From Spirochaetia bacterium (lineage in GTDB: Bacteria; Spirochaetota; Spirochaetia; WTKD01; G963693115): a stretch of DNA of 64,000 nucleotides. Position 1 is the stretch's first letter; each line of letters begins with the position of its first letter. Shown here piece by piece: positions 15,558 to 50,695 of this stretch. The position numbers and the translations under genes are program-made. The notes beneath the pieces are model-generated. The model did no database searches, had not been told where the DNA came from, and worked only from the letters and a program-made list of their open reading frames with translations. The stretch is from NCBI GenBank assembly GCA_965226055.1, contig CBDDCA010000006.1, positions 192,001 through 256,000 of the forward strand, written 5' to 3'.

Positions 15558-15899
15558 ACATAGCATATCTAAAATTTGATATTTTTTTAAAAATAACATG
15601 ATCAAAATCAGCATCTTGTTTAAATTTTGACTTTCTAAAAATAGCATTTTCTGCAAAAGAAACACACCGAAAATATACTTTTTCTTTAAAAGTAGCTGCA
15701 GAAAAATCAACAAATCCTTTAAAGGATACCTTTTTATCCCAATTTAAACCAAATTTAGTTTCTTTTTCAAATATAGCTTTACGAAAAACTACCTCTACAA
15801 ATAATTCAACAGCACAAAAATCTACTTCTTTCTTAAAATTAACTTCACTAAAGTCTACTTTTTTCTCAAAAGTAGCTCCATTAAAATTCACTTCCTCTT

Positions 15900-17380
15900 C
15901 AAATTTAGCACTACAAAATTTTGCTTCCTCCCCAAATTTAGCACTACTAAAATCTGCTTTCTCCCCAAAGGTAGTATCACTAAATTTTGCTTCCTTTTTA
16001 AATGTAATATTCCAAAAATTTGCTTTCTCTCCAAAGGTAGTACTACTAAAATCTGCTTCCTTTCCAAATTTAACTTCCCAAAAATTTGCTTCCTTAAAAT
16101 TAGCATTATTAAAACTTACTTTCTTTTTAAATCTAGCAGCTCTAAAATCTGTTTCGTCTCCAAAGGTAACATCACTAAAATCTGTTTCATCTCCAAAGGT
16201 AACATCACTAAAATCTGCTCTCTCCCCAAAGGTAGTATCACTAAATTTTGCTTCCTTTCCAAATCTAGCATTACTAAAATCTGCTTCCTCTCCAAATTCA
16301 GCACTACTAAAATCTACTTCCTCTCCAAAGGTAACACTCCAAAACCTTGCTTCCTTTTCAAATCTAGCATTACTAAAATCTGCTTCCTCTCCAAAGGTAA
16401 CACTCCAAAACCTTGCTTCCTTTTCAAATCTAGCATTACTAAAATCTGCTTCCTCTCCAAAGGTAACACCCCAAAACTTTGCTTCCTTTTCAAATCTAGC
16501 ATTACTAAAATCTGCTTCCTCTCCAAATTCAGCACTACTAAAATCTGCTTCCTCTCCAAAGGTAACACCCCAAAACTTTGCTTCCTTTTCAAATCTAGCA
16601 TTACTAAAATCTGCTTCCTCTCCAAATTCAGCACTACTAAAATCTACTTCCTCTCCAAAGGTAACACTCCAAAACTTTGTTTCCTTTTTAAACTCAGCAC
16701 TACTAAAATCTGCTTCCTCTCCAAATTCAGCACTACTAAAATCTACTTCCTCTCCAAAGGTAACACTCCAAAACTTTGTTTCCTTTTTAAACTCAGCACT
16801 ACTAAAATCTGCTTCCTCTCCAAATTCAGCACTACTAAAATCTACTTCCTCTCCAAAGGTAACACTCCAAAACTTTGTTTCCTTTTTAAACTCAGCACTA
16901 CTAAAATCTGCTTCCTCTCCAAATTCAGCACTACTAAAATCTACTTCCTCTCCAAAGGTAACACTCCAAAACTTTGTTTCCTTTTTAAACTCAGCACTAC
17001 TAAAATCTGCTTCCTCTCCAAATTCAGCACTACTAAAATCTGCTTCCTCTCCAAAGGTAACACCCCAAAACTTTGCTTCCTTTTCAAATCTAGCATTACT
17101 AAAATCTGCTTCCTCTCCAAATTCAGCACTACTAAAATCTACTTCCTCTCCAAAGGTAACACCCCAAAACTTTGCTTCCTTTTCAAATCTAGCATTACTA
17201 AAATCTGCTTCCTCTCCAAAGGTAACACTCCAAAACCTTGCTTCCTTTTCAAATCTAGCATTACTAAAATCTGCTTCCTCTCCAAAGGTAACACTCCAAA
17301 ACTTTGCTTCCTTTTCAAACTCAGCACTACTAAAATTTACTTCCTTTTCAAATCTAGGACTACTAAAATCTGCTTCTCCT
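15900..17380 (-). repeat. Intragenic tandem 30-bp repeats (10-aa units) with higher-order 90-bp blocks
   Basis: Units such as FGEEADFSSA, FEKEAKFWSV, FGEEVDFSSA; identical 90-bp blocks at about 16650-17010; boundaries approximate. Confidence 0.9.
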
Positions 17381-20328: not shown

Positions 20329-21291
20329 TTGTACGATATAAAGTATATGCCTAATGTTGTCATAGAAGTACAGCATGATAACAATCATATCTCTCATAGA
20401 CGTGGTTTTTTAGAAATTGCTCATAATCGTACTACTGTAAAAGCAGTTGCTTATGATGAGATTGCTGCTCTTATTATGAGTTCTCATGCATCTACTATTT
20501 CCAATAGGGTATTACAGACATTAGCAGAACAAGGGATTCCTGTTATTATAGCAGGGAAAAATTTTCAACCGCTTTCTATAGCATTACCGCTCATTGGCAA
20601 TCATGATATTAGTACTCGCTTACGATATCAAATACAGGCAAGTGAACCTCTAAAGAAACAGGTATGGGCAAATATTGTACGTCAAAAGATTAAGAATCAG
20701 GCCACTGCACTTGCATACTTACAGAAAGATGAAGTTGCTATAAAACAAATACAAAGGTTAGCAACAAAGGTACTCAGTGGCGATACCACAAATATAGAGG
20801 CACAAGCTGCGAGAAAGTATTTTTCTGTATTATTTGGCAAAGAGTTTAAGCGAGATAGAAACTTGAATGATATTAATGGCATGCTTAATTATGGGTATAT
20901 GGTAATACGCAGTGCCGTAGCACGTGCTATCACAGGCTGTGGATTGCATCCAAGCTTAGGAATACACCATAAATCATGGACTGATACGATGCAGTTAGCA
21001 GATGATTTTATAGAGCCTTTTAGACCTATTATTGATGTATTGGTGGCATTGCTGATAAAAAAACATCATATAAAAGAGGTCACTCCTCAAGTGAAACGGG
21101 TACTATGTGCAAGCATAGATCTCCCAGTACAAGCCCCTCGAGGTGTTACTACAATTACTAAAAGCATACAGTATTTTTTACAATCTTTTGCTACAATACT
21201 GACACATAAAGGGGGTAGCCTTTTTAAGACAACATTTCCTTTACTAAAAGATATACAAAAATATGCCATACAGCAGTATACAGAGAAGTAG
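20329..21291 (+). CDS. cas1: Type II CRISPR integrase Cas1
   Basis: EAQAARKYF, NGMLNYGY, LGIHH, LADDFIEPFRP; AGGAG 8 nt before TTG (alternative ATG at 20347). Confidence 0.96.
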   Translation: MYDIKYMPNVVIEVQHDNNHISHRRGFLEIAHNRTTVKAVAYDEIAALIMSSHASTISNRVLQTLAEQGIPVIIAGKNFQPLSIALPLIGNHDISTRLRYQIQASEPLKKQVWANIVRQKIKNQATALAYLQKDEVAIKQIQRLATKVLSGDTTNIEAQAARKYFSVLFGKEFKRDRNLNDINGMLNYGYMVIRSAVARAITGCGLHPSLGIHHKSWTDTMQLADDFIEPFRPIIDVLVALLIKKHHIKEVTPQVKRVLCASIDLPVQAPRGVTTITKSIQYFLQSFATILTHKGGSLFKTTFPLLKDIQKYAIQQYTEK

Positions 21292-21292
21292 T

Positions 21293-21619
21293 ATGCACAG
21301 CAAATATAAGATTATGTGGATCTATGTAATGTTTGATTTACCAGTTATTACCAAAAAGGAAAAAAAAGAGGCTGCTCAGTTTAAGAATGCCTTACTTGAT
21401 TTAAGTTTTGAAATGGTGCAGTACTCAGTATATACACGCATATGTGGAAGTACAAGAAAAGTAGAAGTCGTGAGTAAGAAAATAGAGCATATATTTCCTC
21501 ATCAGGGGAAAGTAGATATTTTAGCAATAACAGATAAACAACATTCTGATATTATCTGTTTACGAGGAGAGGATAAAGAACCTCTACCACAAAAAAATCA
21601 GCAATTTTTACTATTTTAA
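21293..21619 (+). CDS. cas2: Cas2
   Basis: MWIYVMFDLP, F.MVQYSVY.R, ITDKQ. Confidence 0.95.
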   Translation: MHSKYKIMWIYVMFDLPVITKKEKKEAAQFKNALLDLSFEMVQYSVYTRICGSTRKVEVVSKKIEHIFPHQGKVDILAITDKQHSDIICLRGEDKEPLPQKNQQFLLF

Positions 21620-21644
21620 GTGATTTTGTATTTTTGCTTTCTTT

Positions 21645-21683
21645 AAAAAAAGCCCCAAATTCCTATACAATAAGAATTTGGGG
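21645..21683 (-). terminator. Intrinsic terminator in the leader, facing the minus-strand pre-crRNA
   Basis: ccccaaattc...gaatttgggg stem with A-tract at 21645-21651 (U-tract on minus). Confidence 0.75.
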
Positions 21684-21689
21684 GAAGAT

Positions 21690-24600
21690 ATTATATCATA
21701 TAAAGAATTTCAGCCCATCCACAACTGAATTATCATTTTCAAAAACTGTTTTTAAATTATATCATATAAAGAATTTCAGCCCATCCACAACAGCCAATGA
21801 TTACAGATAATAAAAGAAAAGATTATATCATATAAAGAATTTCAGCCCATCCACAACTAGAAGATACTAGTATTTCTTGTAGAAAATTATTATATCATAT
21901 AAAGAATTTCAGCCCATCCACAACTAAATCAACTCTAAATCATATACTCTATTAATTATATCATATAAAGAATTTCAGCCCATCCACAACAAAAGAAATA
22001 TTAAAAAAAAAACATAAAAAATTATATCATATAAAGAATTTCAGCCCATCCACAACAAAAATTTTACTAAAAGAAGTCATTGTAGGATTATATCATATAA
22101 AGAATTTCAGCCCATCCACAACAACCCATATGAACGGCTAGGAATTATACGCATTATATCATATAAAGAATTTCAGCCCATCCACAACCACTTTGGAGTC
22201 TCACCATCAGACGCACGAATTATATCATATAAAGAATTTCAGCCCATCCACAACAAATATGAAGTTTCATTGCAATACATAGAAATTATATCATATAAAG
22301 AATTTCAGCCCATCCACAACTGGCGACGATTACTTAGATGAAAAAGTCTATTATATCATATAAAGAATTTCAGCCCATCCACAACAATGATGGATTATAA
22401 ATATAGCATTGAAATTATATCATATAAAGAATTTCAGCCCATCCACAACCCCGAGAGTGTTCTTGTTAATAGCACGATGATTATATCATATAAAGAATTT
22501 CAGCCCATCCACAACAAAAAGCTAGTTCTTTTATTTCAGCGTTCGATTATATCATATAAAGAATTTCAGCCCATCCACAACATGGTTTCGAGCCTATAAC
22601 ATGATATACAAATTATATCATATAAAGAATTTCAGCCCATCCACAACACTTGCAGCAACGCAACGCGAAGTTAGACGATTATATCATATAAAGAATTTCA
22701 GCCCATCCACAACGATACGAAGATCAGACATACGAGGATGCACATTATATCATATAAAGAATTTCAGCCCATCCACAACTAACTAGTCCAGATCAAGTTA
22801 ATTTATCTAATTATATCATATAAAGAATTTCAGCCCATCCACAACTATAATGTGCATGGCATCGATCATGCCAGAATTATATCATATAAAGAATTTCAGC
22901 CCATCCACAACTGCCTCAAGTAGCAAACCCCGAAGGAGTGTATTATATCATATAAAGAATTTCAGCCCATCCACAACGAAGTAATCTTTATGCCAGTTAC
23001 GACGGAGATTATATCATATAAAGAATTTCAGCCCATCCACAACGTATAAAAGCAGCATTTAATAATCAATTTAATTATATCATATAAAGAATTTCAGCCC
23101 ATCCACAACTATAAGGCTAGTTGGTGACAGATTTAGGATATTATATCATATAAAGAATTTCAGCCCATCCACAACTACCAGGTATAGAAGGAAAATAATA
23201 TGGTCATTATATCATATAAAGAATTTCAGCCCATCCACAACAAAAGGCACAAGTGCCACAGTACTGAGCGAATTATATCATATAAAGAATTTCAGCCCAT
23301 CCACAACAAGAAAGCGTTCATTGTGTACTCTTCCGATATTATATCATATAAAGAATTTCAGCCCATCCACAACTATTCCCATTTATCGCCTTTTTTTACA
23401 ATCATTATATCATATAAAGAATTTCAGCCCATCCACAACTAAAAACGCGGGAGTTAACCCGTTAATGTTATTATATCATATAAAGAATTTCAGCCCATCC
23501 ACAACCTCCCGGCTTATGGCATACCACAATTATAATTATATCATATAAAGAATTTCAGCCCATCCACAACGACAGCAACAACAGACCGCCTACCTGTGAA
23601 TTATATCATATAAAGAATTTCAGCCCATCCACAACGTGCTTGACACATCAGATGAAGTGGAAGTAATTATATCATATAAAGAATTTCAGCCCATCCACAA
23701 CGTCAGCCGACAGCAATTACATCGGTAAATAATTATATCATATAAAGAATTTCAGCCCATCCACAACATATTTGATCAGTGGACACAATTTATTACAATT
23801 ATATCATATAAAGAATTTCAGCCCATCCACAACAAGGATAGACACATGTACGAAATGGAGCAAATTATATCATATAAAGAATTTCAGCCCATCCACAACT
23901 AGTAAGAACTCAGCCACTCGTAAAGCCAGATTATATCATATAAAGAATTTCAGCCCATCCACAACGAAAAAGTGCCAACTGATAAAGCATTAGATATTAT
24001 ATCATATAAAGAATTTCAGCCCATCCACAACGATCGCGGTTGGCTTAGAAAAACTAAAGAAATTATATCATATAAAGAATTTCAGCCCATCCACAACATA
24101 ACGAAAAGTTAGTTACAAAGAGATACGATTATATCATATAAAGAATTTCAGCCCATCCACAACAGAGTATATCGATTGCGATCATTCGGATCTATTATAT
24201 CATATAAAGAATTTCAGCCCATCCACAACTACAAAAGCAGATATTCAAGCGAGAAGACAATTATATCATATAAAGAATTTCAGCCCATCCACAACTGCGA
24301 TAGGGGAAGACCATACATCGTACGTATTATATCATATAAAGAATTTCAGCCCATCCACAACCATGATGGCAGGGGCTTTTGGCTTTGAGGGATTATATCA
24401 TATAAAGAATTTCAGCCCATCCACAACTACAAGATAGGCTAACGCTTTCTCTGTTTTATTATATCATATAAAGAATTTCAGCCCATCCACAACACAGGAG
24501 TTATTAAAGAGGCAGATCGCATTATTATATCATATAAAGAATTTCAGCCCATCCACAACAATTTTTGGCATATGGCGCGCACATTCAACATTATATCATA

Positions 24601-26735
24601 TAAAGAATTTCAGCCCATCCACAACACGTTATATCGAATACCTCAATGCCTCTTTATTATATCATATAAAGAATTTCAGCCCATCCACAACAACATTCCA
24701 ACCGCAGACAAACGAGCAGTAATTATATCATATAAAGAATTTCAGCCCATCCACAACTGGATAGCTGAAGTCCATATATGATATACTATTATATCATATA
24801 AAGAATTTCAGCCCATCCACAACATGTGGTTTCAGGGTAAGAAAATCAATCCAATTATATCATATAAAGAATTTCAGCCCATCCACAACACAACATGCAA
24901 AATTTGTACAAGCCCTAGCATTATATCATATAAAGAATTTCAGCCCATCCACAACATCTGAACAGCCAGTTATGAAGTCAGAACTATTATATCATATAAA
25001 GAATTTCAGCCCATCCACAACATTTTTGAGCAGTGGACGCAATTCATTACAATTATATCATATAAAGAATTTCAGCCCATCCACAACTATAGTTTGCAAC
25101 GGAAAGCAAGTACTAGAATTATATCATATAAAGAATTTCAGCCCATCCACAACCGTATCGGTATCTCTGTAGAAGTCATTAAAATTATATCATATAAAGA
25201 ATTTCAGCCCATCCACAACTAACATTGATTACGCACAGAAAAATTACATATTATATCATATAAAGAATTTCAGCCCATCCACAACAAGCTGTCCAATTTC
25301 TTCGTCAAACATGCCATTATATCATATAAAGAATTTCAGCCCATCCACAACCAAATTCTGAAGATTCTACAGGACTTCAGAATTATATCATATAAAGAAT
25401 TTCAGCCCATCCACAACCTAAGTTCATTATTTTTTATTGAATCATTTATTATATCATATAAAGAATTTCAGCCCATCCACAACAACTCATAGGAGAGGGC
25501 GATAATATTACAGATTATATCATATAAAGAATTTCAGCCCATCCACAACATTGGGACAAACCCATACCAGATATAAATATTATATCATATAAAGAATTTC
25601 AGCCCATCCACAACAAAGACATATTGTGGAATTATTTCGGCTTGATTATATCATATAAAGAATTTCAGCCCATCCACAACATGCCACAGGTGGCAAACCC
25701 TGAAGGAGTTATTATATCATATAAAGAATTTCAGCCCATCCACAACATTTTTTGTTTCGATATTATAGCTCCGTAAATTATATCATATAAAGAATTTCAG
25801 CCCATCCACAACCTGCTTACGGAGTACCAAAGTTATAGGAGTATTATATCATATAAAGAATTTCAGCCCATCCACAACCGCCTAATGTTTTCCCATATTT
25901 TATGGGTTATTATATCATATAAAGAATTTCAGCCCATCCACAACATTAAAAGTTATTTTATTATCTTGTATAGTATTATATCATATAAAGAATTTCAGCC
26001 CATCCACAACATAGTCCATGTAGGCAACAAAGTCAGAGCAATTATATCATATAAAGAATTTCAGCCCATCCACAACAGAGGCAATGGCAGACATATAAAA
26101 AGAGAATTATATCATATAAAGAATTTCAGCCCATCCACAACTAATATTTATTATTTTATTAAAGTCAGTGAATTATATCATATAAAGAATTTCAGCCCAT
26201 CCACAACATCACATGCAAAGTTTGTCCAAGCCCTCGCATTATATCATATAAAGAATTTCAGCCCATCCACAACTGGTTGGTTTCGCAAAACCAAGGAAGA
26301 TTAATTATATCATATAAAGAATTTCAGCCCATCCACAACAGGTATGCTTATACCTGTTGGAATCTGGGAATTATATCATATAAAGAATTTCAGCCCATCC
26401 ACAACTATAATCTTATTTATCATTGGAGCAATCCGATTATATCATATAAAGAATTTCAGCCCATCCACAACCAGCTTTCATACACACATACTTTGTACCT
26501 TATTATATCATATAAAGAATTTCAGCCCATCCACAACTAATACTAAACTTATTTGCTGCAAAGTCGTATTATATCATATAAAGAATTTCAGCCCATCCAC
26601 AACTACCATGTAATAGGTGTCGATTTTGCAGAAATTATATCATATAAAGAATTTCAGCCCATCCATAACTTAATGACTGCCAGAAATGACGAGATCGCAA
26701 TTATATCATATAAAGAATTTCAATCTATCCACAAC
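21690..26735 (-). CRISPR. Type II-C CRISPR array, 77 repeats / 76 spacers (28-31 bp, mostly 30)
   Basis: 36-bp repeat GTTGTGGATGGGCTGAAATTCTTTATATGATATAAT on minus; last two repeats next to cas9 are degenerate; strand inferred from tracr complementarity, embedded TGnTATAAT and the leader terminator. Confidence 0.98.
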
Positions 26736-26740
26736 GACAA

Positions 26741-29700
26741 TTACTTTTTTGCAAAGGAAATTATGCCAGTAGGACTCATATGTACTTTTTGTAATTTATA
26801 CCCCTGTAATTTAGCGAGAGAAGTATATCGTTCCCTTACTCTTACTTTTTGATCATCTTTTTTTTCTTCTTTTATTTCTTTTGCACGTGCAGCATCATTG
26901 GCTTCATGCAACTCTGCAAGATCCAGATCTATACTCCCTGACATCTTACACACTCGATATAGCTTTCCTTCGGGAGCATGAGGAGGGTAGAGCATGACAG
27001 TATCATTATTGTGTAAGCGCATAAGCATTTTTTGAGTAGGGTATTTCTTTTTCCACTGAGGCACATAGTTTTTTTTATTTGCATGATATCTCGTTATCAT
27101 TTCTCCTTGCCATTTTCCTTCTTCATCTTCGTATATTTCATATGCCCAGTTTCCTGCTGAAATATACCCTTTATATGCTTTTCCTTGTTTGTCTTTTTGA
27201 ATGCCTATTACTGTCTCTTTTGTAATGATTTTTACTTTTCTTATCCCAGTTTCTTGAAAGCATTGCTCTAGGGCTTCTTTTATATTTCCATTATGCCTAT
27301 TACAATAATCTTGTAGCAATTTTCTTGTTTTAGGGCTTGCTATTTTCTTAATCATTGGTACAGTTAAATCCAAAATATTCTTGTGAATTCCCACATACCG
27401 AGCTTTCTTTGTATCCTGTGTACTCGTATCAGATCCTGGTACGCGGAAGCTATAGGCTTGCTCCTCAAGTAACTGCCCTGTCTTTCCTCTGTCACTTTTA
27501 TGTGATACTATTATTTTCTGCATACTCCGTTCAACATCTTCACGAAATCCTTCCCATGGAGCAGGAATAGCCTCTCTATGCTTTTGACTAAACAAATGTA
27601 TATCTGCATATTCTGCAGCACTTGCCCATTGCGATACTTTATTCAGTATTCCTCTCTCAATACATCCTACCACAACAGCATCCACTGCATGATGTCTATG
27701 ATCGTCTCTATTCTTTTTGCCATCATCCCCTAGCACTTTATTTAGTCCCCACATATGTCGTAACCAAGCACTGAGTTTTCCTGGTGAAACCCATATATCC
27801 ACAGGATGAGATTTTTCTTTCAAGCTCTCAAGATAATATTGAGCTACCTTTGCAAAATACTGAGATGAATGTAATTGATGTGCTAAAAATCCTTCTTCTT
27901 GTTCAAAACGTTTCATAGCATCACTTTTAAAACGCCAGCTTTTATTAGAAGGAAGCAGATTTGCATTGTTGTCTATGCTTTTCCATTTGTTAGTAGTTCC
28001 CCATGCTTCATGGGGAGTTTTGTTCATCTTTTCCTTATTTGCTCCTGATTTACAGAGTACTTTATTAGCAAAGCTATTATCAAGGGTACGAGAAAAAGGC
28101 AAAATATGATCGATATGCGTAGCATGAGAAAATACATCATCTTTTGTTATCTTCTCATTTGAATAAGGGCAACGTCTATCATTAGGATTATCTGATAATT
28201 CTTTCCATAATCTATATTTTTCTCTATCACTACGAGAAGGAGATACTATGCCATAGTCATCTTCTAATTCTTTGTTTATTTTTTCATTTTTCGCTTGGTT
28301 ATCTCTTAGTTTTTTATCATAATCACTTTTGGTTTGTTTTCCCATAGAAAAATCACGCAATAATTCTAGCACTATTTGTTGGGGCTTGTCATATCTGCGT
28401 ATAAGCTCATTTACTACTTTTTGTAGCTGATTAAGTCCTACATGTACGGTTGGATTTGTTATCTTACCATATTGAGCTTCCTGTCTTTTTCGTCCTTTTA
28501 TTTTCTCATCAATGTCTTTTGCTTCTTTCTTGCCTATGCAGTATCGAGAGAGTATTTCCCCATAGTATGGCAACACACTATATCCCTTAGCACGTGTTCC
28601 TCGATGATCTCCGTAGCCAGCTTGCTTTACTGCCTCATCATAGGTGATAATATCTTTTTGTAGACACGCTACTATCTTGGTGAGTGCTGTCTTTGATAAG
28701 TTACAGTACCCTTTTGGCAACTTCACAATCTTAGATATGCATTCATCTGCTGTTTCTTTGTCAAGATTCCACTCACTAACACACAATACTTCTCGTAATT
28801 TTTCATCCGAATTTTCAGTATCTAAAAGGAGTGCTATAAAATTATTTTTTCTCTCCATATCCCAGTCTTGCCATATTTTTTTCCCTATAATTTTTGATAC
28901 CACTGCAGTAGTTCCATTATGCTTAAAATTTTTAGTGTCTACTCGTTCAAAATTGATAGATACTGTCCCTTCTAAATGATACTCTTTCTTTATATAGGTA
29001 GAAACATCCTTTGGCTTAGCACTGCTTGATTTATTCTCCAGATAGTTTTTTAGCTTATCTCGTAATAGTATATCTACAGGAAACTCTTCTCTATTATGAA
29101 ATATGCGTATATTGTGTATATCTTGTAGTATTCTAAATTCTTGTGCAATAGGCATTGCCCATGCACAACGATGCTCATCTTCAAAAATACACAGGCCTGG
29201 TGTTTGAGGCTTTAGTTTACGCTGATAAAATATTACCTCTTTTATTTTCTCGTATGCTTCATTGGAGAACAACTGGTGGGTATGAGATAGCTCCTTTTGT
29301 TGCTTCCATATCGTATCAAATTCTTTCTCATACATCTCACGTGAAAAATACAGCTCATAGTCAGTTTTTCCGGGAGTTAGCGATTTTGCCCTCACTGCCT
29401 TTTTCTGCTTAAAGCGACTGTAGAGATATTCCCCTAATGTTCGCATATTATTTTTATGCAGCTCTTTTTCTAACTCTTTTATGACAGGCTTGATTTTCCC
29501 TGTTTCATCATCTCCATCAGATAGTCTATTACTCTTAAAGCCTCTCCGCTGATTTATATGAAATATCGCTCGCCCAAATTCATGTGCAGAAATAGCTTCA
29601 TCCAATGCCTTTGCTCGTAGCTCATAGGGGTTTTTCTGCTGTAGTGCAAGACGCTCCTCCTTATCTGCAGGGAAAAACCCAAAATGAGTGAGCTGAGAGA

Positions 29701-29920
29701 GAATATGCTCCCGTCTTTGTAAGTATCTGTCTCTCCGTCTTCTTGCTGAACGGGCAGTTTGCCGTTCCTGATTGAGTGGTGCATAGGTCTTATCTGCTCT
29801 GCTATTTGAAAAAATACGCACTCCTGTGCCTTTTAGAGCAACTGGCGATCCTTCTTGTACTTCAAGGACTGCCCATCCTATCGAATTAGTGCCTAGATCA
29901 AAACTAAAACGAATACTCAT
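26741..29920 (-). CDS. cas9: Compact type II-C Cas9 (about 1059 aa from ATG 29920)
   Basis: RuvC-I FDLGTNSIGW, bridge helix RRRRDR, RRGFKSNR, NPTV, HNH IDHILP..NKVL, RuvC-III HHAVDA; GGAGGT RBS. Confidence 0.97.
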   Translation of the reverse strand: MSIRFSFDLGTNSIGWAVLEVQEGSPVALKGTGVRIFSNSRADKTYAPLNQERQTARSARRRRDRYLQRREHILSQLTHFGFFPADKEERLALQQKNPYELRAKALDEAISAHEFGRAIFHINQRRGFKSNRLSDGDDETGKIKPVIKELEKELHKNNMRTLGEYLYSRFKQKKAVRAKSLTPGKTDYELYFSREMYEKEFDTIWKQQKELSHTHQLFSNEAYEKIKEVIFYQRKLKPQTPGLCIFEDEHRCAWAMPIAQEFRILQDIHNIRIFHNREEFPVDILLRDKLKNYLENKSSSAKPKDVSTYIKKEYHLEGTVSINFERVDTKNFKHNGTTAVVSKIIGKKIWQDWDMERKNNFIALLLDTENSDEKLREVLCVSEWNLDKETADECISKIVKLPKGYCNLSKTALTKIVACLQKDIITYDEAVKQAGYGDHRGTRAKGYSVLPYYGEILSRYCIGKKEAKDIDEKIKGRKRQEAQYGKITNPTVHVGLNQLQKVVNELIRRYDKPQQIVLELLRDFSMGKQTKSDYDKKLRDNQAKNEKINKELEDDYGIVSPSRSDREKYRLWKELSDNPNDRRCPYSNEKITKDDVFSHATHIDHILPFSRTLDNSFANKVLCKSGANKEKMNKTPHEAWGTTNKWKSIDNNANLLPSNKSWRFKSDAMKRFEQEEGFLAHQLHSSQYFAKVAQYYLESLKEKSHPVDIWVSPGKLSAWLRHMWGLNKVLGDDGKKNRDDHRHHAVDAVVVGCIERGILNKVSQWASAAEYADIHLFSQKHREAIPAPWEGFREDVERSMQKIIVSHKSDRGKTGQLLEEQAYSFRVPGSDTSTQDTKKARYVGIHKNILDLTVPMIKKIASPKTRKLLQDYCNRHNGNIKEALEQCFQETGIRKVKIITKETVIGIQKDKQGKAYKGYISAGNWAYEIYEDEEGKWQGEMITRYHANKKNYVPQWKKKYPTQKMLMRLHNNDTVMLYPPHAPEGKLYRVCKMSGSIDLDLAELHEANDAARAKEIKEEKKDDQKVRVRERYTSLAKLQGYKLQKVHMSPTGIISFAKK

Positions 29921-29937
29921 AAATACCTCCAATGGAC

Positions 29938-29966
29938 TTGACATATATGTATATATCCTATATTAT
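29938..29966 (+). promoter_or_regulatory. Putative tracrRNA sigma70 promoter
   Basis: TTGACA-N17-TATTAT. Confidence 0.65.
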
Positions 29967-29987
29967 TTAAGTATAGGATTTAATTCT

Positions 29988-30082
29988 ATTATATCATATA
30001 AAGGATTTCAGCAAAAAATCCATTAACAAGTGCCTTCGGGTGCACTAATCAGCCCATCACTTCGGTGATGGGTTTTGTTTTT
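29988..30082 (+). ncRNA. tracrRNA
   Basis: Anti-repeat attatatcatataaaggatttcagc (24/25) plus atccattaac; hairpins agtgccttcgggtgcact and cccatcacttcggtgatggg followed by a T-tract. Confidence 0.92.
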
Positions 30083-31054
30083 CTAAGAGGAAGTGTTGTT
30101 TTTCATCTTTGCGATATGCTTTTGCATCTTTTCCTTTGAGAAGATCTCATCATATACAGAATGATAAATTTTTCCATTTTTATATGCATTTGATACATCT
30201 CCTATAAAAGAACTAAAGTCTTCATTCTTTAAACATAACTTATTCATTGTTTCCCAATCAAGACGATCCTTATTTCTTGCAGGAAACAATACTCTCGAAG
30301 CATCAATGTCTTCTATGCTAAGCTCTATTATGCCTATGCCAAAAAAATTACTTAAGCGTGATAATTCTCCATGCACATCTTCATCTTTTTTTATATTAGA
30401 GGCCACTAGATAGCCCTCATGAGCCCACGATGAATTAGAGAGAGCTTGAAAAAAACTTTCCCTATAATTACTTCTATCTATCTTTATTTTTAATTCAAAA
30501 GAGAATAACTGAAGAGCATTCATATCAGATAATGTATTAAACTCAAGTATAGTCTTATCCCAATATTCCAAAGGTAAATAAAAACCTACTATATCGGGGT
30601 GTAACCATTCACCTGGATCATTCTTTTTCGATTTCTCATGGAATATTGTTTTCGTATATACCTTTTTTCTTCTGTTAAATTTTTTATTGTTATAGACGAA
30701 ATAAGATAATAATGGGTGCAAATCACGTTCTGAATATGATGAAACACTACTACTCTCTTGCTTAGGAGTGGTATCTACACTGTTTATAGGCAATTCTTCA
30801 TCTGCGAATTTAAGCTCATGTTTCCTTGATTTTAGAAAAAATTTCTGAGGATTTTTTCCTATTGAAAAAAATTTTGAAGATGAAATCTTTACATTTGTAT
30901 ATAAATGTGCCCCTAACGTCGCATAAGGAGTTTTTCCTTCACTTGTAAGCTCCTTGTTTAATCCTAAATCTACTCCTTTGTCCCAAATTTCTTGACTACT
31001 CAGAGGAGCATTAGCTCCCTTCAGTACCTCTTCTGCAAAATCTAAATATGTCAT
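30083..31054 (-). CDS. HrgA/COG2958-like protein (N-terminal HARE-type HTH plus restriction-endonuclease-like domain)
   Basis: GKTPYATLGA.LY; ERDLHPLL; WLHPDIVG; SFELK; FFQA.SNSSWAHEGYLVA. Confidence 0.8.
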   Translation of the reverse strand: MTYLDFAEEVLKGANAPLSSQEIWDKGVDLGLNKELTSEGKTPYATLGAHLYTNVKISSSKFFSIGKNPQKFFLKSRKHELKFADEELPINSVDTTPKQESSSVSSYSERDLHPLLSYFVYNNKKFNRRKKVYTKTIFHEKSKKNDPGEWLHPDIVGFYLPLEYWDKTILEFNTLSDMNALQLFSFELKIKIDRSNYRESFFQALSNSSWAHEGYLVASNIKKDEDVHGELSRLSNFFGIGIIELSIEDIDASRVLFPARNKDRLDWETMNKLCLKNEDFSSFIGDVSNAYKNGKIYHSVYDEIFSKEKMQKHIAKMKNNTSS

Positions 31055-31124
31055 TTATATACCACCTGTAGTAACAGTATACTATATCTTTTAGAATAGC
31101 GTTACTCTCAAGCTATTTTTACGT

Positions 31125-31226
31125 GTTACATAGCATGTTCCATGTACCTTGTGCTATAAGACTATCCCCACCTCAAAAGCAACAGCCCCTGTTACATAGC
31201 ATGTTCCATGTACCTTGTGCTATAAG
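31125..31226 (+). repeat. 36-bp direct duplication flanking a 30-bp insert (66-bp period)
   Basis: gttacatagcatgttccatgtaccttgtgctataag at 31125-31160 and 31191-31226. Confidence 0.92.
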
Positions 31227-32054
31227 AGTGGCTACTTCACTGCGTAGGGTGTGTTGTCCTATGTGTACAAAATCTATACGAAGTGCTGCTAATAGTGTTG
31301 TTTCTGCATTGCTATACTGTCGTTCGGGTCCGATGAAATAGACAAAATGAAGTACATGCTCAACACTGTTGTTAGTATCGTTTTCATGCTCCATACAAGA
31401 CGTTTGCTCTTTATTGAATGCGGAAGTGGATGCTTGATGGGAGAATGTACGATGCAACAGTTCACAGAGTGAAGTTGCTGCGTTTTGTTGCACTATCACG
31501 GACAGAAATCTTGTAGAGGCATGTTCTTTTTGCTTGCATGTGTCAAGCAACGACAGTGCATTTTCTATTCCCACACATGTGTACACGGAGGGAACACAGC
31601 ACTCCTTGCCTTGCATAGCTCCCAACAATAACAACTCATCTGCTGTATTCCAAAACGATGCGTTTAGATAGCTTTTCTCTCCTAGTTCGGGAACATAGCA
31701 TATAATATTGCCCACTCCCATTGTACTGAGATCCCGCAGTAGTCGTGCCATTACAGGAGGACGCGGATGAGCAAGCACTATGGTAGATCTATAGCGTTTC
31801 GGAACAAACGGGATCTCTACACGAAAATGCATGTCTATGCCATCACTGTGTAGGGCTAGTATTCTTGCTGTGCCAAACCCTCTCTCAATAATGCCTGCTT
31901 CAAGCTCTGTCCCTTCTTTTGATTGCGATAATATGGTAGTAATATGTTTTGTTCGTATATCATGTGCAGAAAGATGCACACGATATGTTTGTACATCAGC
32001 ATGTGCTTCTGAGTCTGCGGTGCATTCATGTGCATAAAATAAAATGCAGTTCAT
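31173..32054 (-). CDS. rsmE: 16S rRNA m3U1498 methyltransferase RsmE
   Basis: PRP....RLLRDL..MGV, EKSY, FIGPER, LRSEVA SPOUT motifs. Confidence 0.8.
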   Translation of the reverse strand: MNCILFYAHECTADSEAHADVQTYRVHLSAHDIRTKHITTILSQSKEGTELEAGIIERGFGTARILALHSDGIDMHFRVEIPFVPKRYRSTIVLAHPRPPVMARLLRDLSTMGVGNIICYVPELGEKSYLNASFWNTADELLLLGAMQGKECCVPSVYTCVGIENALSLLDTCKQKEHASTRFLSVIVQQNAATSLCELLHRTFSHQASTSAFNKEQTSCMEHENDTNNSVEHVLHFVYFIGPERQYSNAETTLLAALRIDFVHIGQHTLRSEVATLIAQGTWNMLCNRGCCF

Positions 32055-45552: not shown

Positions 45553-45924
45553 ATTATATTTATTCTCCCGTTATCTCTAAATCACAAAAAACCAAGTAAA
45601 TAAGTAAATAACATAATATTCTCTCATTCTATATTAATATTGTAACATAGTTGTAAGTAAAATGTAATTAAAAATCTTATTTTTTTTGTATCAACACAGA
45701 GAGATAGCTTAAGATTTTAATTATATACTTAGGTTTATCCGTATAAAGAATACTTGAATTTGCATAACTTTGATTGCATATTTGTGCTGAACATAATAGA
45801 TTTTTTATAAATTACTCTAGTCTGCTTTTATACATAATTCCTGTATTTATAAAGTTGGAGTATTACTCTCTTGTATACTCTATCAAAAATGCCTTAGAAA
45901 CACTTTTTTACTACTCTTGAGGTT

Positions 45925-45960
45925 CTATAGCAAGAAAGGAGCTATCCTTTCTTGCTATAG
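45925..45960. terminator. 16-bp perfect stem-loop downstream of the large lipoprotein gene
   Basis: ctatagcaagaaagga-gcta-tcctttcttgctatag. Confidence 0.7.
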
Positions 45961-45979
45961 GTTGTATTGCTACACTATG

Positions 45980-48900
45980 CTATGATGTACATGCTGGATC
46001 ATTTTTACCAGCTAATGCCTGCGGGTACTGGCTTGTTTTGCCTGCCATAGCTGAACCTTGGAAATCAATGGCAAATAATTTTCCTATTTTACATAATTCC
46101 CATGATGATAAATCTTGATCAAATGCACTAGCGTTACCAAACATAGCACCCACAGAAGTAACATTCTTTACATTCCAGTTGCTTATGTCTTGATTAAAAG
46201 CAGTAGCATTACCAAACATAACAGTCATAAATGCAACTTTGCTCACATTCCAGTTTCCTATATCTTTATTAAAGGTACTTGCATTCAAAAACATATTACT
46301 CATAGTAGTAACACTACTTACATCCCAGTTTCCTATGTCTTGATTAAAAGCAGCAGCTTTGAAAAACATAGTATCCATACTCGTTACGCTACTTGTATTC
46401 CACTGTGTTATGTCTCCATTAAAAGTACTATCACTATCAAATAATTGAATCATATCAGTAATGGCACTCGTATCTATCATGTTGAGGTTGGGGCTAGGGT
46501 TACTGTTTCCTCCTGAACCTTGCCTTGTCTTTTCTTCACTGATAATAGTTTGTAGTGCTGATTTTGTTGTTGGTCTGTAATAGGCTTCTGCTTTTCCTGA
46601 TGGTGCTGTTCTTAGCTCTGTCTGTATAACGATAGTTGCTGGTACTTTTTTCTTTGAAGCAGTAAGGGTACACTGTGCTACATCATAGCTATACTCAGTA
46701 ATATTAGGATCACGTATATTGGATTTGTTTGCTATGCCTGTTATGGTAACTGTTTTGCTGTTCTGATCAAACGATACTGTAAGGCCTGTTTCTTGTTTGA
46801 TTTTCTTTGCATCTGCCTCTAGTATGTTTGCATCACAGGTAAAAGCATTGCCACTGGGTGTGCTTGCCAGTACTCTTGTAGTATTTGATGCTAGTGCTGT
46901 GCCTACTTCTGCTGATACTATGCTAGTGTTTCCTATAGATATTCCTCTTGCTTCAAACTCGTGGCGTTCTCCTGTTGATACTTTTGTGTCATCAGTGCTG
47001 TTTACTGCTTGTACTACTATTTCGTAGGTCGTTCCGTTTGTCAAGTTTGTCAGGGTAGTGTTTGTTGTTCCTGCTGCTATATTTTTTGTTGCTGTATTAG
47101 CATTTGCTTTTATCTGTGCTACGCTTCTCGTTGTATCACCACTTTTGGCAATGCTATATACCTTATACGATACCTGTGCTGCTGTTAGGGTAGCTCCTTT
47201 ATTTGTTTTGTGACTTGCACTGAGGCTGGGAGCTGTCCACGATACTCTCATACCTGTTTGGGCTACTCTCGTCTGTATGCTTGTTACTTCTGCAGGGGCA
47301 GTTGCCTGCGATGCGGTTGTTACGCTTGCTACTGTTGAGGAGGCCACTTTTTTGCTTGGGTCTGTTTTTACTGCTACTTCTACCACAAAGTAGTACTTTG
47401 TCGCTCCTTTTATTGCTACTACTGGTGCTGTGTCTGATGACAAGCCTAAACTGGCAAGGGCTGGTACTGTGTACACTCCACTTGTTGCACTGCCTAGGTT
47501 TACTTTTCTGCCTGCAAGTACTTCTGCTACGGTAGCTGTGCCGTCTTTCTGTAAGCCATATACTGTGTATACTAGCTTATCATTTGCTGTTATGCTTGTA
47601 CCATCGTAGTCTTTTGCTCCTGTAAATGTATTTAGCTCGGTAAGTACCAGCTTTATTGTTCCTGCTGTGTTTGTTGACGGTGATACTACTAGCTTTCCTG
47701 TCAGTAATGACTGATTTGGTGCCACTGCTTTGGAAGTATAGATTTCCTTTATTTCTGTTACATCGGTGTAAAAGCCTGCAGGAAAGAGCTTGTCGCTATT
47801 TGTTGCATCGTAATTGGGTGATGTTGTGTTGACTATCCTTACCCCTATGTAGTAATCCTTTGCTGTTTCTATGGGCGTTACTCCTGCATTGCTTCCACTG
47901 GTGCTGTCTACTATTGCTATGGATATTGTGTCTTGAGTTGTTCCTGTTGCTTTTGTGTATTTTGCTACCTTTACACTGCTTTTCTCTATCGCCCACAGAG
48001 CTGATACGCTGGCAGGCTTTCCTGTGGTATCTTCTTTCTTGAGGTATAGCACATAGTACGCAAGGTCTGTCGCTGCAAGAGGAGTACTATCCGCTTTGCT
48101 CACTCCTGCTATAGCTGAGGCGTTTACTTGCACTGTTATGACTTTTTTCCCTCTATTGCTTCCTGTTGTAGGTACTGCAAATACCACTGCATTATTTGTA
48201 GTATAGGTTGTTACTTTTGGTGTGCTTGGGGGAGCAGTAAGTGTTGCTTTCTTTATTGTTACTGATGCTCCTATACTATAGGCGGGATTGAGGCTGTTTA
48301 TTGCTTCTACTCCTGCAGTGTATGTTGCAGCTTTCTTTCCTATAAATCTTACTTGTAAGGTACTGTCTCCTGCTATATTCTGTGTTTGTACTCCTGCAAG
48401 GCCTTTTATTGCCTCTAGTGTTTTTGTGCTGTGGTCTCCTTCTGCTATGTATACTTTGTACTGTATTTGTGCCTGTGTAAGTTTGCTTCCACTGGGTGCT
48501 TTGTTAGTATCAGTAATGTCTCCTGCACTAAATGTATAGACTGCTGTTGCTGTTACTTGTGTTACTGATTCTACAGAGAGCTTTGCATCTTTTGCAGCGG
48601 GCGGTGCTGTTGAGGTACTATCGTATACTGCCACAGTATCGGAAAGAGTAGTTACAGGACTTACTATGTTATTTGCTATTGTCAAAAAGGTAAAGCGATA
48701 ATTCTTGGCATTTGCTTGTACCTTAGGTACTTCTAAGCCATCTGCTATCCCAAAAGTAATGGCTGTTACACTTCCTGTTATGCTTTTTTCTGCTACCAGT
48801 GTAGCTCCATCGTACATACGCAAGGTATAGTATCGTCCTATGCCTGGAGCTTGCTTAAAGGTTGCTTTTATTTGTATTGCTCCTGTTGTGTCTAAGCTAG

Positions 48901-50695
48901 GCTTGTTTTGAAAAAGATCTTCTGACGGAGCTGTGGGTTGCGGAGTAGTTATGTCTTTTGTTGCTTGTGTGCTTTTGTTTCCTGCATAGTCTATTGCTTG
49001 TATTGTTATGGTGTATGTTTTTCCTTGTGTGAGTTCTTCTACAGAGAGCGATGTTATGGGATAGGGTATTTTCTTCTCGCTCAGTACTGTGGTGCTTGTG
49101 CCTTTTTCTGCTATGCTCACGCTGTATTCTTTTATGTCTTTGTTATTGGCTTTTGTTGTATCGGGGGCTGTCCATGTTATCTGTGTGCCTATCTTTGTGG
49201 GTGATACAAAAGGATAGCTTGCTTGTATGCTTGTTACTGCATCGGGGGCGGTGCCATCATCTACTGTGGTGGTGGTTGCTGTTATTTTTGCTCCTTTGTT
49301 GCCTGTGTAATCTTGTGACTGTACTGCTATGCTGTATTCAGTGGTAGCTTTTAGTCCTGTTATCTGCGTGTTTCTTAGTGTTCTCTCTGTTATTGTTACT
49401 GTCTTTGCTGTTGTTGTTGTGCTGTCTTTTTCTGTTACTGTTATAGTCACTCCTGCATAGTCTCTTACATCGGGGGCTTGCCAGCCTACTACTATGCTTG
49501 TTGCTCCTCCTACTGCACTCACATTGCTTACAGGCTCTGTGCTTTTGTCTGTTGTTGCTTGTTCTTTTGACACTGCAGTGGAGTACTTTCCATTTTTAGA
49601 AACATACACTTCTACTTTGTAAGTAAGCGTGCCGTAGAGTTTTGTGAGGGCTATGCCATCTTTTGCTACATACACAGTGGCGTACTCTTGGTTGTCTGCA
49701 CTTGCAGAGCTGAGTTTGGCTGTACTGCTATTGCTCACTGTTTCGTATGCTATGAGAGTATTTGTTGCTGTTGCTATCACGCGTACTTGCAGACTTTTGT
49801 CTGTAAAGGTAAAGCTCCCCCACTGAATAAGCAGGCTTTCATCGGCTGGGCTATTGCTTTTATCGTTTGCTGTTACTGTAAGGTCTGATGCGGAAAGTGG
49901 CGTTACTGTCTGTGAGAGTGCTGATGGCACTATGCCTCTGAGTGCTTGCTTTGCCGTGCTTTCGTTGCCATTGCTATCTCTGTATACTACCACTACATCA
50001 TAGCTTATGCCGTCTATAGTAGGGACAGCAATAGTTACTTCTCCTTGTGTTACATCTTGTACTGTTACTTCTTTTTTTACATTAGTGGTGCTTTCTATCA
50101 CCTGTACTATGGCTTCGGCTATGTCTGTTTTGCCTGACGAGAGCAGTGCTTTGTCCCATGTTATCTTTATGCCATTTGTTGCTTTCGTCACTGCTACCTT
50201 GTTGAAGGTATCTTGAGGTTTCGTTGTATCTGTCAATGTTGTCACAGAGCGGGTTGTTTTTGGTGATACTTCTGTATCTGACTTCTGGGCTTCTATCTCT
50301 ACAGTATAATCGGTAGTGGCATGCAAGCCTCTGAGTACATAGGGTCTGTTTTGTTGAAACAATGTACGATATTCTATTGCAGGAACACGCACCTGTATAG
50401 ATTGTGCTGGTGTTGTTGATGTAGCTTTTACAACTACATGCGTAGCATCGCTGGGAGCTTCCCAGCGTAACGAGAGCGTCCCATCGTTGCCTGCTGCTTG
50501 TATCTGCACATTGGACACTGATGCAAGTGTCGGGGTTATTGGTGTCCCCCCTCCGCCTGAGGAACTACTGCTACTCTCTGCACATCCTACGAGTACGAGG
50601 GTAGTTATTGCTAGCACTAAAAATAGTGCAACAACTATAAATATGTTCAGCTTACTATTTATCTGATAGTTTAGTTTTTCATTACTTTTTTTCAT
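45980..50695 (-). CDS. Large surface lipoprotein: fibronectin-III repeats plus C-terminal DUF285/BspA-like repeats
   Basis: Lipobox LVGC; W.AP...L...T.Y...V.A FN3 motifs; FNQDIGNWDVSSVTTM..MF 25-aa repeats. Confidence 0.88.
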   Translation of the reverse strand: MKKSNEKLNYQINSKLNIFIVVALFLVLAITTLVLVGCAESSSSSSGGGGTPITPTLASVSNVQIQAAGNDGTLSLRWEAPSDATHVVVKATSTTPAQSIQVRVPAIEYRTLFQQNRPYVLRGLHATTDYTVEIEAQKSDTEVSPKTTRSVTTLTDTTKPQDTFNKVAVTKATNGIKITWDKALLSSGKTDIAEAIVQVIESTTNVKKEVTVQDVTQGEVTIAVPTIDGISYDVVVVYRDSNGNESTAKQALRGIVPSALSQTVTPLSASDLTVTANDKSNSPADESLLIQWGSFTFTDKSLQVRVIATATNTLIAYETVSNSSTAKLSSASADNQEYATVYVAKDGIALTKLYGTLTYKVEVYVSKNGKYSTAVSKEQATTDKSTEPVSNVSAVGGATSIVVGWQAPDVRDYAGVTITVTEKDSTTTTAKTVTITERTLRNTQITGLKATTEYSIAVQSQDYTGNKGAKITATTTTVDDGTAPDAVTSIQASYPFVSPTKIGTQITWTAPDTTKANNKDIKEYSVSIAEKGTSTTVLSEKKIPYPITSLSVEELTQGKTYTITIQAIDYAGNKSTQATKDITTPQPTAPSEDLFQNKPSLDTTGAIQIKATFKQAPGIGRYYTLRMYDGATLVAEKSITGSVTAITFGIADGLEVPKVQANAKNYRFTFLTIANNIVSPVTTLSDTVAVYDSTSTAPPAAKDAKLSVESVTQVTATAVYTFSAGDITDTNKAPSGSKLTQAQIQYKVYIAEGDHSTKTLEAIKGLAGVQTQNIAGDSTLQVRFIGKKAATYTAGVEAINSLNPAYSIGASVTIKKATLTAPPSTPKVTTYTTNNAVVFAVPTTGSNRGKKVITVQVNASAIAGVSKADSTPLAATDLAYYVLYLKKEDTTGKPASVSALWAIEKSSVKVAKYTKATGTTQDTISIAIVDSTSGSNAGVTPIETAKDYYIGVRIVNTTSPNYDATNSDKLFPAGFYTDVTEIKEIYTSKAVAPNQSLLTGKLVVSPSTNTAGTIKLVLTELNTFTGAKDYDGTSITANDKLVYTVYGLQKDGTATVAEVLAGRKVNLGSATSGVYTVPALASLGLSSDTAPVVAIKGATKYYFVVEVAVKTDPSKKVASSTVASVTTASQATAPAEVTSIQTRVAQTGMRVSWTAPSLSASHKTNKGATLTAAQVSYKVYSIAKSGDTTRSVAQIKANANTATKNIAAGTTNTTLTNLTNGTTYEIVVQAVNSTDDTKVSTGERHEFEARGISIGNTSIVSAEVGTALASNTTRVLASTPSGNAFTCDANILEADAKKIKQETGLTVSFDQNSKTVTITGIANKSNIRDPNITEYSYDVAQCTLTASKKKVPATIVIQTELRTAPSGKAEAYYRPTTKSALQTIISEEKTRQGSGGNSNPSPNLNMIDTSAITDMIQLFDSDSTFNGDITQWNTSSVTSMDTMFFKAAAFNQDIGNWDVSSVTTMSNMFLNASTFNKDIGNWNVSKVAFMTVMFGNATAFNQDISNWNVKNVTSVGAMFGNASAFDQDLSSWELCKIGKLFAIDFQGSAMAGKTSQYPQALAGKNDPACTS

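Follow-up and report, generated by a model that had tools for sequence, protein, structure and literature searches.

What could have placed a 66-bp structure, shaped exactly like a CRISPR repeat-spacer unit, in the final codons of rsmE, an RsmE-family 16S rRNA methyltransferase gene of an uncultured spirochaete? We address this question for a stretch of 64,000 nucleotides from a Spirochaetia bacterium (contig CBDDCA010000006.1 of assembly GCA_965226055.1, positions 192,001 to 256,000). This stretch is hereafter the window, and coordinates without a prefix are positions within it; the source genome is denoted G000 (contigs C1 to C6), and a sister species of the same genus is denoted G001. The structure consists of two copies of the same target sequence on either side of an unrelated insert (X-Y-X) and looks like a natural misfire of the spacer integrase. 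Specifically, it very probably resulted from full-site spacer integration, into a non-CRISPR site, by the only Cas1-Cas2 of this genome, which belongs to a type II-C system. A natural fossil of off-target acquisition had been proposed in a sequence-only reading of the window, and the proposal is supported by the geometry of the insertion, its donor, the empty allele and the recurrence of such events.

The geometry is defined by a direct-repeat search, which shows that positions 31124-31161 are identical to 31190-31227 over 38 nt, with a start-to-start spacing of 66; this is the sole such direct repeat between window positions 30000 and 32500. The perfect repeat with a 66-bp period described from the sequence is thus borne out, and its parsing into a 36-bp duplication around a 30-bp insert is fixed independently, by a donor match of exactly 30 nt. 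Because neither flank of this 30-mer in the donor paralogues agrees with the corresponding rsmE flank, the transfer is exactly 30 nt long and the duplication, which is without mismatch, exactly 36 bp; the two additional identical bases in the 38-nt match are chance overlaps of the flanks with the insert ends. The repeat of the type II-C array located about 4.4 kb away is 36 nt long, and the modal length of its spacers is 30 nt. Local tandem duplication or slippage was considered and rejected, given that the middle 30 nt are absent from the empty allele and are traced to a distant gene family.

Translation of both copies of the duplicated site shows the consequences for the gene. The original stop codon of rsmE is at 31120-31122 on the minus strand, and the original end, ...MLCNT*, survives in the distal copy, while the protein now ends ...MLCNRGCCF*, as had been read from the sequence. 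Because the insertion falls at the very end of the coding sequence, RsmE loses just its last residue, a threonine, and gains five (RGCCF), all beyond the Pfam domain. The C-terminus was therefore indeed rewritten, as the sequence-only reading had it, to a minor extent, namely, from one residue to five outside the conserved domain, so that a functional effect is unlikely. The NCBIfam RsmE models also match the product, with scores under their cut-offs.

The donor of the insert was found within the host genome itself. Allowing up to 4 mismatches, the 30-mer occurs at 14 places in G000, 11 of them exact, including the rsmE copy, one with a single mismatch and two with two; thus, the insert is 30/30 identical to 10 other genomic places, with 3 near copies besides. 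All these other copies lie within paralogues that measure about 4.4-4.7 kb, show 89.6-93.8% identity and have homologous flanks on both sides of the 30-mer, and some 30 more diverged paralogues lack this segment. One copy lies inside an open frame of 1533 codons, a 1009-aa part of which contains Pfam fn3 (fibronectin type III) domains; the family appears to encode giant surface lipoproteins. In G001, the best matches to the 30-mer are just 27 nt long, which implies that the donor was the source genome's own version of the family.

The dispersal of the 30-mer, with 14 places in G000 and many near-matches in G001, is what one would expect of the footprint of an insertion sequence, a miniature inverted-repeat transposable element (MITE), a prophage att site or a dispersed mobile repeat, and membership of the insert in a dispersed repeat had been named in advance as a finding that would speak against spacer integration. 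Literally, the insert does belong to such a repeat; this does not count against integration, since the 30-mer is an internal excerpt of coding paralogues rather than the end of a mobile element, and all its other copies reside in long conserved coding sequence. The insert has no terminal inverted repeats and none lies at the site, no integrase or tRNA adjoins it among the annotated neighbours, and it is flanked by a duplication of 36 bp. The target duplications that transposases are known to make are far shorter than 36 bp. A mobile-element footprint is, accordingly, extremely improbable. Moreover, the same lipoprotein family is the source of a bona fide array spacer: spacer 24 of the type II-C array (23242-23271, minus strand) is 30/30 identical to G000:C4:929-958, which supports the interpretation of the dispersed 30-mer as a spacer.

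The empty allele, which the sequence-only reading had suggested seeking in relatives, was found twice. Only 2 of the 41 genomes compared match the rsmE region at the DNA level, namely, G000 itself and G001, and the search for further empty alleles yielded just this one related locus in the species collection. In G001, the 36-mer is present once, with a single difference in 36 positions, in the same context and without an insert, and RsmE ends ...MLCNT*. In addition, an 18,410-nt contig from sequencing run X5, which carries another organism label, comes from another study and is 90-95% alike, skips exactly the 66 bp. This arrangement bears on the possibility that the structure is a decayed or horizontally acquired two-repeat mini-CRISPR, not an insertion into an existing gene. 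Such an origin would account for the array-unit geometry, and a degenerate mini-array does exist in this genome (G000:C1:29383-29550). What it would call a repeat, however, is the conserved 3' end of rsmE, found once in the sister species in the same context with 1 of 36 positions different, so that a mini-CRISPR origin has hardly any probability. A functional CRISPR array at rsmE was also rejected: there is one unit only, and its pseudo-repeat agrees with the true repeat at 15 of 36 positions.

The assembly consists of 6 contigs at 89% completeness and the insert is multicopy, features that could favour a mis-join or a collapsed repeat. Against this, an 88-nt Logan unitig that covers 31132-31219, and hence both junctions, is present at flank depth in three runs (X1, X2 and X4), which represent two samples from one study, possibly including the source of the assembly itself. 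An artefact thus has next to no chance of being the explanation. In these runs, the unitig of the 38-mer is at about 2 times the depth of the flanks and that of the 30-mer at about 6-10 times; from these depths, the filled allele seems to be near fixation, with the qualification that the contigs of X1, X2 and X4 were built from 31-mers and are compatible with a minor empty allele. The 36/36 identity of the two target copies and the 30/30 identity of the insert to its donor argue for a recent gain.

A candidate agent is encoded nearby and is intact. The type II cas1 gene of the window is the only cas1 in G000 (one match in a PF01867 search), and G001 likewise has one; cas1 and cas2 both score above the NCBIfam cut-offs and their open reading frames (ORFs) are uninterrupted, and cas9 is intact as well. 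The lengths of the II-C array spacers are 30 nt in 69 cases, 29 in five, 31 in one and 28 in one, so that the dominant unit is 66 bp; two degenerate repeats are located at the cas9 end. Downstream of the putative trans-activating CRISPR RNA (tracrRNA) promoter there is a 31-nt repeat-like match at 29982-30012, and the last tracrRNA hairpin is a terminator (30051-30074) followed by a T run. The orientation of the tracrRNA implies that the crRNA sense is on the minus strand, in which the repeat begins with GTTGTGG and ends with an extended -10-like TGATATAAT. Repeat ends of this kind are known from Neisseria-type II-C arrays.

The array also shows that self-derived spacers are in character for this system. 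Spacers 100% identical to the own chromosome number 1 of 76 in G000 and 3 of 191 in G001 (spacers 103, 104 and 163), where the syntenic II-C array comprises 192 repeats (spacers of 30 nt in 180 cases, 29 in 10 and 31 in one) and has no spacer in common with that of G000. Searches of the G000 II-C array against 6 genomes of the family, and of all spacers of both II-C arrays against G000 and G001, returned self-targets only; the whole II-C array compared with a phage collection gave only weak matches at chance level, none of them a near-identity of spacer length. The self-matching spacers suggest missing protospacer-adjacent motifs (PAMs), weak Cas9 interference or an inhibitor. A TT..T. pattern occurs 5' of four protospacers, opposite to the side on which a type II PAM would lie, and was not relied on.

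That the rsmE structure belongs to a class is supported by recurrence. We scanned G000, and then G001 in 118 pieces, for direct repeats outside arrays that have periods of 36-130 and copies of 28-42 nt separated by at least 15 nt. In G000, 8 matches have period 66, 32 have period 72 and 34 have period 75, with one or two each at 81, 99, 102, 120 and 123; the period-72 and period-75 classes together with 5 of the 8 at 66 are coding tandem repeats or leucine-rich repeat arrays. The isolated period-66 events in G000 are three, namely, rsmE, C3:2883 and C2:50051, and two events of the same kind were detected in G001 (Table 1). Each of the four additional events, found by the kind of scan that the sequence-only reading proposed, is empty in the other species, and in G000 the flanks at both G001 event sites are 92-98% identical. 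Under a strict automated isolation filter applied over the same range of periods, G000 retains two events at 66 (rsmE and C3:2883), one at 72 and one at 123, and G001 retains one at 65 and one at 66, as well as two at 120 and single ones at 45, 72 and 111. Isolated two-copy events thus cluster at 65-66 in both genomes: against a background of about 0.02-0.05 isolated events per period per genome, 2-3 are found in G000 and 2 in G001 at the array period, an excess with a probability of about 1e-3 in each genome by a hand Poisson estimate.

Several of these events alter proteins. At C3:2883, 22 codons were added in frame (aa 198-232) to a 1018-aa protein and at C2:50051, 22 codons were added in frame to a 434-aa ORF, whereas G001:235344 is located on the overlap of the end of a 934-aa ORF with the start of a 199-aa ORF, which the duplication now separates; by their sequence motifs, these two ORFs encode a putative DNA polymerase I and a putative dephospho-CoA kinase.

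Recurrence also weighs on Cas-independent template switching or break repair, by microhomology-mediated break-induced replication (MMBIR) or filler-DNA synthesis, in which 30 nt would have been copied from a paralogue and 36 nt of the template then re-copied. A self donor from a multicopy family is favoured by such mechanisms, and at both junctions the flank and the insert share 1 nt. Nevertheless, template switching offers no reason for exactly 36 plus 30, nor for the same geometry at four unrelated sites with inserts that have no local donor, and microhomology of the TACAT type between the donor flank and the target was available and is not used by the junction. We consider this route very unlikely, more probable only than the mobile-element, mini-CRISPR and artefact explanations.

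Table 1. Features of the rsmE insertion, the adjoining type II-C locus and the other 36+30 events; positions without a prefix refer to the window
Feature	Position	Strand	Remarks
RsmE-family 16S rRNA methyltransferase gene, 293 aa	31173..32054	-	PF04452, 51.2 bits, aa 87-281; stop TGA within insert
Target duplication, left copy, distal to gene	31125..31160		Keeps original rsmE end ..MLCNT; boundaries from exact 30-nt donor match
Spacer-like insert, 30 nt	31161..31190		Identical to internal segment of multicopy lipoprotein gene family
Target duplication, right copy, proximal to gene	31191..31226		Present end of rsmE frame
HARE-HTH domain protein gene	30083..31054	-	Directly downstream of rsmE; start codon ~70 nt past original rsmE stop
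cas1 (type II), presumed integrase subunit	20329..21291	+	TIGR03639, 245.6 bits
cas2	21263..21619	+	TIGR01573, 61.5 bits; PF09827
Type II-C array	21690..26735	-	77 repeats of 36 nt, 76 spacers
cas9, 1067 aa, type II-C size	26741..29944	-	TIGR01865, 599 bits, aa 12-1060; RuvC_III, HNH_4, Cas9_a
Putative tracrRNA, approximate ends	29970..30085	+	Promoter-like TTGACA-17-TATTAT 29938-29966; anti-repeat 29988-30012; two hairpins
Event in source genome	G000 C3:2883		36-nt copies, 1 mismatch, plus 30-nt insert; G001 single copy
Event in source genome	G000 C2:50051		Copies ~36 nt with 3 mismatches (or 34 nt with 2), insert 30-32 nt; G001 single copy
Event in sister species	G001:235344		35-nt exact copies, period 65; 35+30, or 36+29 with one changed base; G000 one copy
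Event in sister species	G001:828637		36-nt copies, 2 mismatches, plus 30-nt insert; in frame, 356-aa putative lipoprotein; G000 one copy

What, then, would have directed the integrase to these sites? The rsmE target aligns with the true repeat in register at its ends, with GTT at positions 1-3 and TG.TATAA at 28-35; counting positions 1-3 and 7 of the last 9, it matches at 10 of 12 positions; 905 of the 4,497,908 36-mers of the genome do at least as well (2e-4, by a criterion chosen post hoc). The proposal that the site mimics the repeat ends accordingly holds only in part, for the ends themselves, and does not extend to overall likeness, which is not significant. Among the other targets, that of G001:235344 is repeat-like, with identity at 22 of 35 aligned bases (p=0.0005), and that of G001:828637 is less so (p=0.041). 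On our reading, four of the five targets combine a border G with a TATA-like stretch at the opposite border; for three of these four, the orientation that gives the G border is also the best-scoring one against the II-C repeat, and the orientation of C2:50051 was picked by eye. Targeting looks sequence-guided, albeit loosely.

Several observations weigh against the attribution to Cas1-Cas2 or limit its reach, among them that the agency of these proteins at the rsmE site is deduced from sequence. Over its full length, the rsmE target matches the repeat at 15 of 36 positions (p ~0.05 ungapped in one orientation, p ~0.2 gapped as the best of two), and the end-match statistic is post hoc. By the same gapped two-orientation test, repeat likeness is not apparent for the targets at C3:2883 (p=0.57) and C2:50051 (p=0.095). 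By-eye inspection revealed no leader-like sequence beside the rsmE site, and the 3' flanks of the self-target protospacers give no PAM consensus. The rsmE insert was derived from self DNA rather than from a phage or plasmid, and no donor for the other four inserts was found in G000 or G001; for two of them, there were 0 exact matches in IMG/VR, and 0 of 5 relatives' genomes match the inserts searched at up to 3 mismatches. Furthermore, C2:50051 fails the strict filter, its matched segment being cut at 30 nt, and the few isolated repeats at other periods (72 and 123 in G000; 45, 72, 111 and 120 in G001) belong in the same balance. Finally, the comparison involves one sister species only, and the polarity, gain here versus loss there, is not formally rooted; a loss would, however, presuppose an earlier gain of the same shape.

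With these reservations, spacer integration by the II-C Cas1-Cas2 can be envisaged as follows. A 30-nt prespacer would have been excised from the host's multicopy lipoprotein family, and two staggered transesterification attacks, 36 bp apart, would have joined it to the last codons of rsmE, with a ruler distance equal to the repeat length. Gap repair would then have left the 36-bp target duplicated on either side of the insert. The self-derived spacer would be tolerated in a site that makes no working guide; the insert is probably harmless because the duplicated site is presumed unable to pair with the tracrRNA. The same process would have produced at least four more scars in G000 and G001.

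Off-target integration as such is already known, and the rsmE event appears to be an unusually clean natural case of it. Nivala, Shipman and Church reportedly described, in 2018 (Nat Microbiol 3:310), off-target spacer integration and neo-CRISPR formation in Escherichia coli type I-E. According to 10.1101/148544, that study reports integration at off-target sites in E. coli, with "circumstantial evidence" for two further species. The likeness to the E. coli events, as they are reported, lies in the insertion of a spacer-sized fragment into a non-CRISPR chromosomal site with duplication of a target of repeat length. The differences are that the events described here are natural and do not stem from over-expression, that they belong to type II-C (36/30) and not to I-E, that donor, empty allele and independent reads are available for one event with four more fixed in two sister species, and that several are in-frame 22-codon insertions inside coding genes. 

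In vitro, according to PMC6895254 on Streptococcus thermophilus II-A and PMC6698737 on Pyrococcus furiosus, off-target integration occurs at sites similar to the repeat or to its junction with the leader, the attack favours guanine, and the second attack is set by a ruler of repeat length. The G at one border in four of five targets and the significant repeat likeness of two of them agree with what these texts state, while the assays there used plasmids and in S. thermophilus yielded mostly half-site products, in contrast to the completed, repaired and inherited chromosomal insertions analyzed here, which have no evident leader-like flank. The term "ectopic spacer acquisition", as used for S. 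thermophilus arrays in PMC7999890, reportedly denotes insertion away from the leader-proximal repeat, at another repeat inside a true array; the rsmE target is no CRISPR repeat, and "off-array" is the fitter term. Our search of the open-access literature found no natural off-array integration for type II-C, nor any events for which donor and empty allele had both been identified.

Besides a degenerate mini-array, the source genome contains three arrays of 30-nt spacers whose 36-nt repeats are unrelated; G001 contains five array loci, of which one is split into two blocks. In Flavobacterium columnare, the II-C adaptation genes are reportedly used in trans by a type VI-B array (PMC8092290). The situation here is similar to that account in that one II-C cas1-cas2 coexists with several arrays of differing repeats, one of which adjoins a Cas13b-like gene; it differs in that trans use is suggested by gene content only, and a connection of such use to off-array integration would be a further step. 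Having to serve several repeat sequences may make an integrase less selective, and this would be in line with the "promiscuous integrase" of the sequence-only reading.

Off-target integration had been known from over-expressed Cas1-Cas2 and in vitro experiments, and from natural genomes only circumstantially. The rsmE locus is an unusually complete natural record, in which the donor, the target and the empty allele are accompanied by an intact integrase and four sibling events, and provides a direct handle on the fidelity of the type II-C integrase, with five natural target sequences on which targeting rules could be tested. It bears on the mutational burden of adaptation, in the form of 22-residue in-frame insertions and rewritten gene ends, and on the proposed de novo birth of CRISPR arrays. 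A bolder generalization is that off-array integration by the II-C integrase is a recurrent, heritable mutational process that both generates 22-codon in-frame insertions, including the one in a Cas13b-like effector, and seeds new arrays, such that the four to six unrelated-repeat arrays accompanied by a single cas1, and the mini-array at C1:29383-29550, would be neo-CRISPRs later captured by effectors. We regard this scenario as speculative and rather improbable, although clearly less so than any of the rival explanations of the rsmE structure.

Several additional features of these genomes deserve mention. The layout of the locus at 20329-30085 is unusual, in that the array lies between cas1-cas2 and cas9, both of which point towards it, and the tracrRNA, upstream of cas9, is divergent from it. 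Spacer 29 of the G001 II-C array has a 27/30 match to a spacer of an array with a differing repeat at G001 245581-246079.

The donor lipoprotein family accounts, by our estimate, for about 9% of the genome. Window positions 45923-50629 encompass one of its approximately 45 paralogues (the ~80% class), within which 75-bp repeats of the leucine-rich type occur at 46113-46425. Coding tandem repeats are also present at 15891-17376 (33/66/99-bp unit) and at 51749-52576 (102-bp unit, 8 copies); the former was left out of the scan because its 66-nt period is a multiple of 33.

A period-66 structure with copies of about 29 nt at G000:C6:574160-574254 (L005 4161-4255) was not counted among the events, being present in both species. 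Its copies duplicate the lipobox region (LCTNAFSNEL) of a small lipoprotein, and it could be either an unrelated structure or a much older product of this kind of event.

The 1018-aa protein of contig C3 (L001:2291-5347) adjoins an array of 30 repeats of 36 nt at C3:31-2043. It has RNxxxH motifs at aa 83 and 962 and no match in Pfam, NCBIfam or PDB sequences; judging from the two motifs and the gene context only, it looks like a small divergent Cas13b-like effector. The third array of the source genome, at C1:13496-14191 (L002), consists of 11 repeats with 30-nt spacers and is flanked by ORFs of 278 aa and 597 aa without a family match and by type I restriction S-subunit genes. The mini-array at G000:C1:29383-29550 (L003) comprises two full and one truncated copies of a 36-nt GTTGTGGATCAGCC... 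repeat with period 66. A 523-codon minus-strand ORF runs into it with its 3' end, and homology to the sister species stops just before it.

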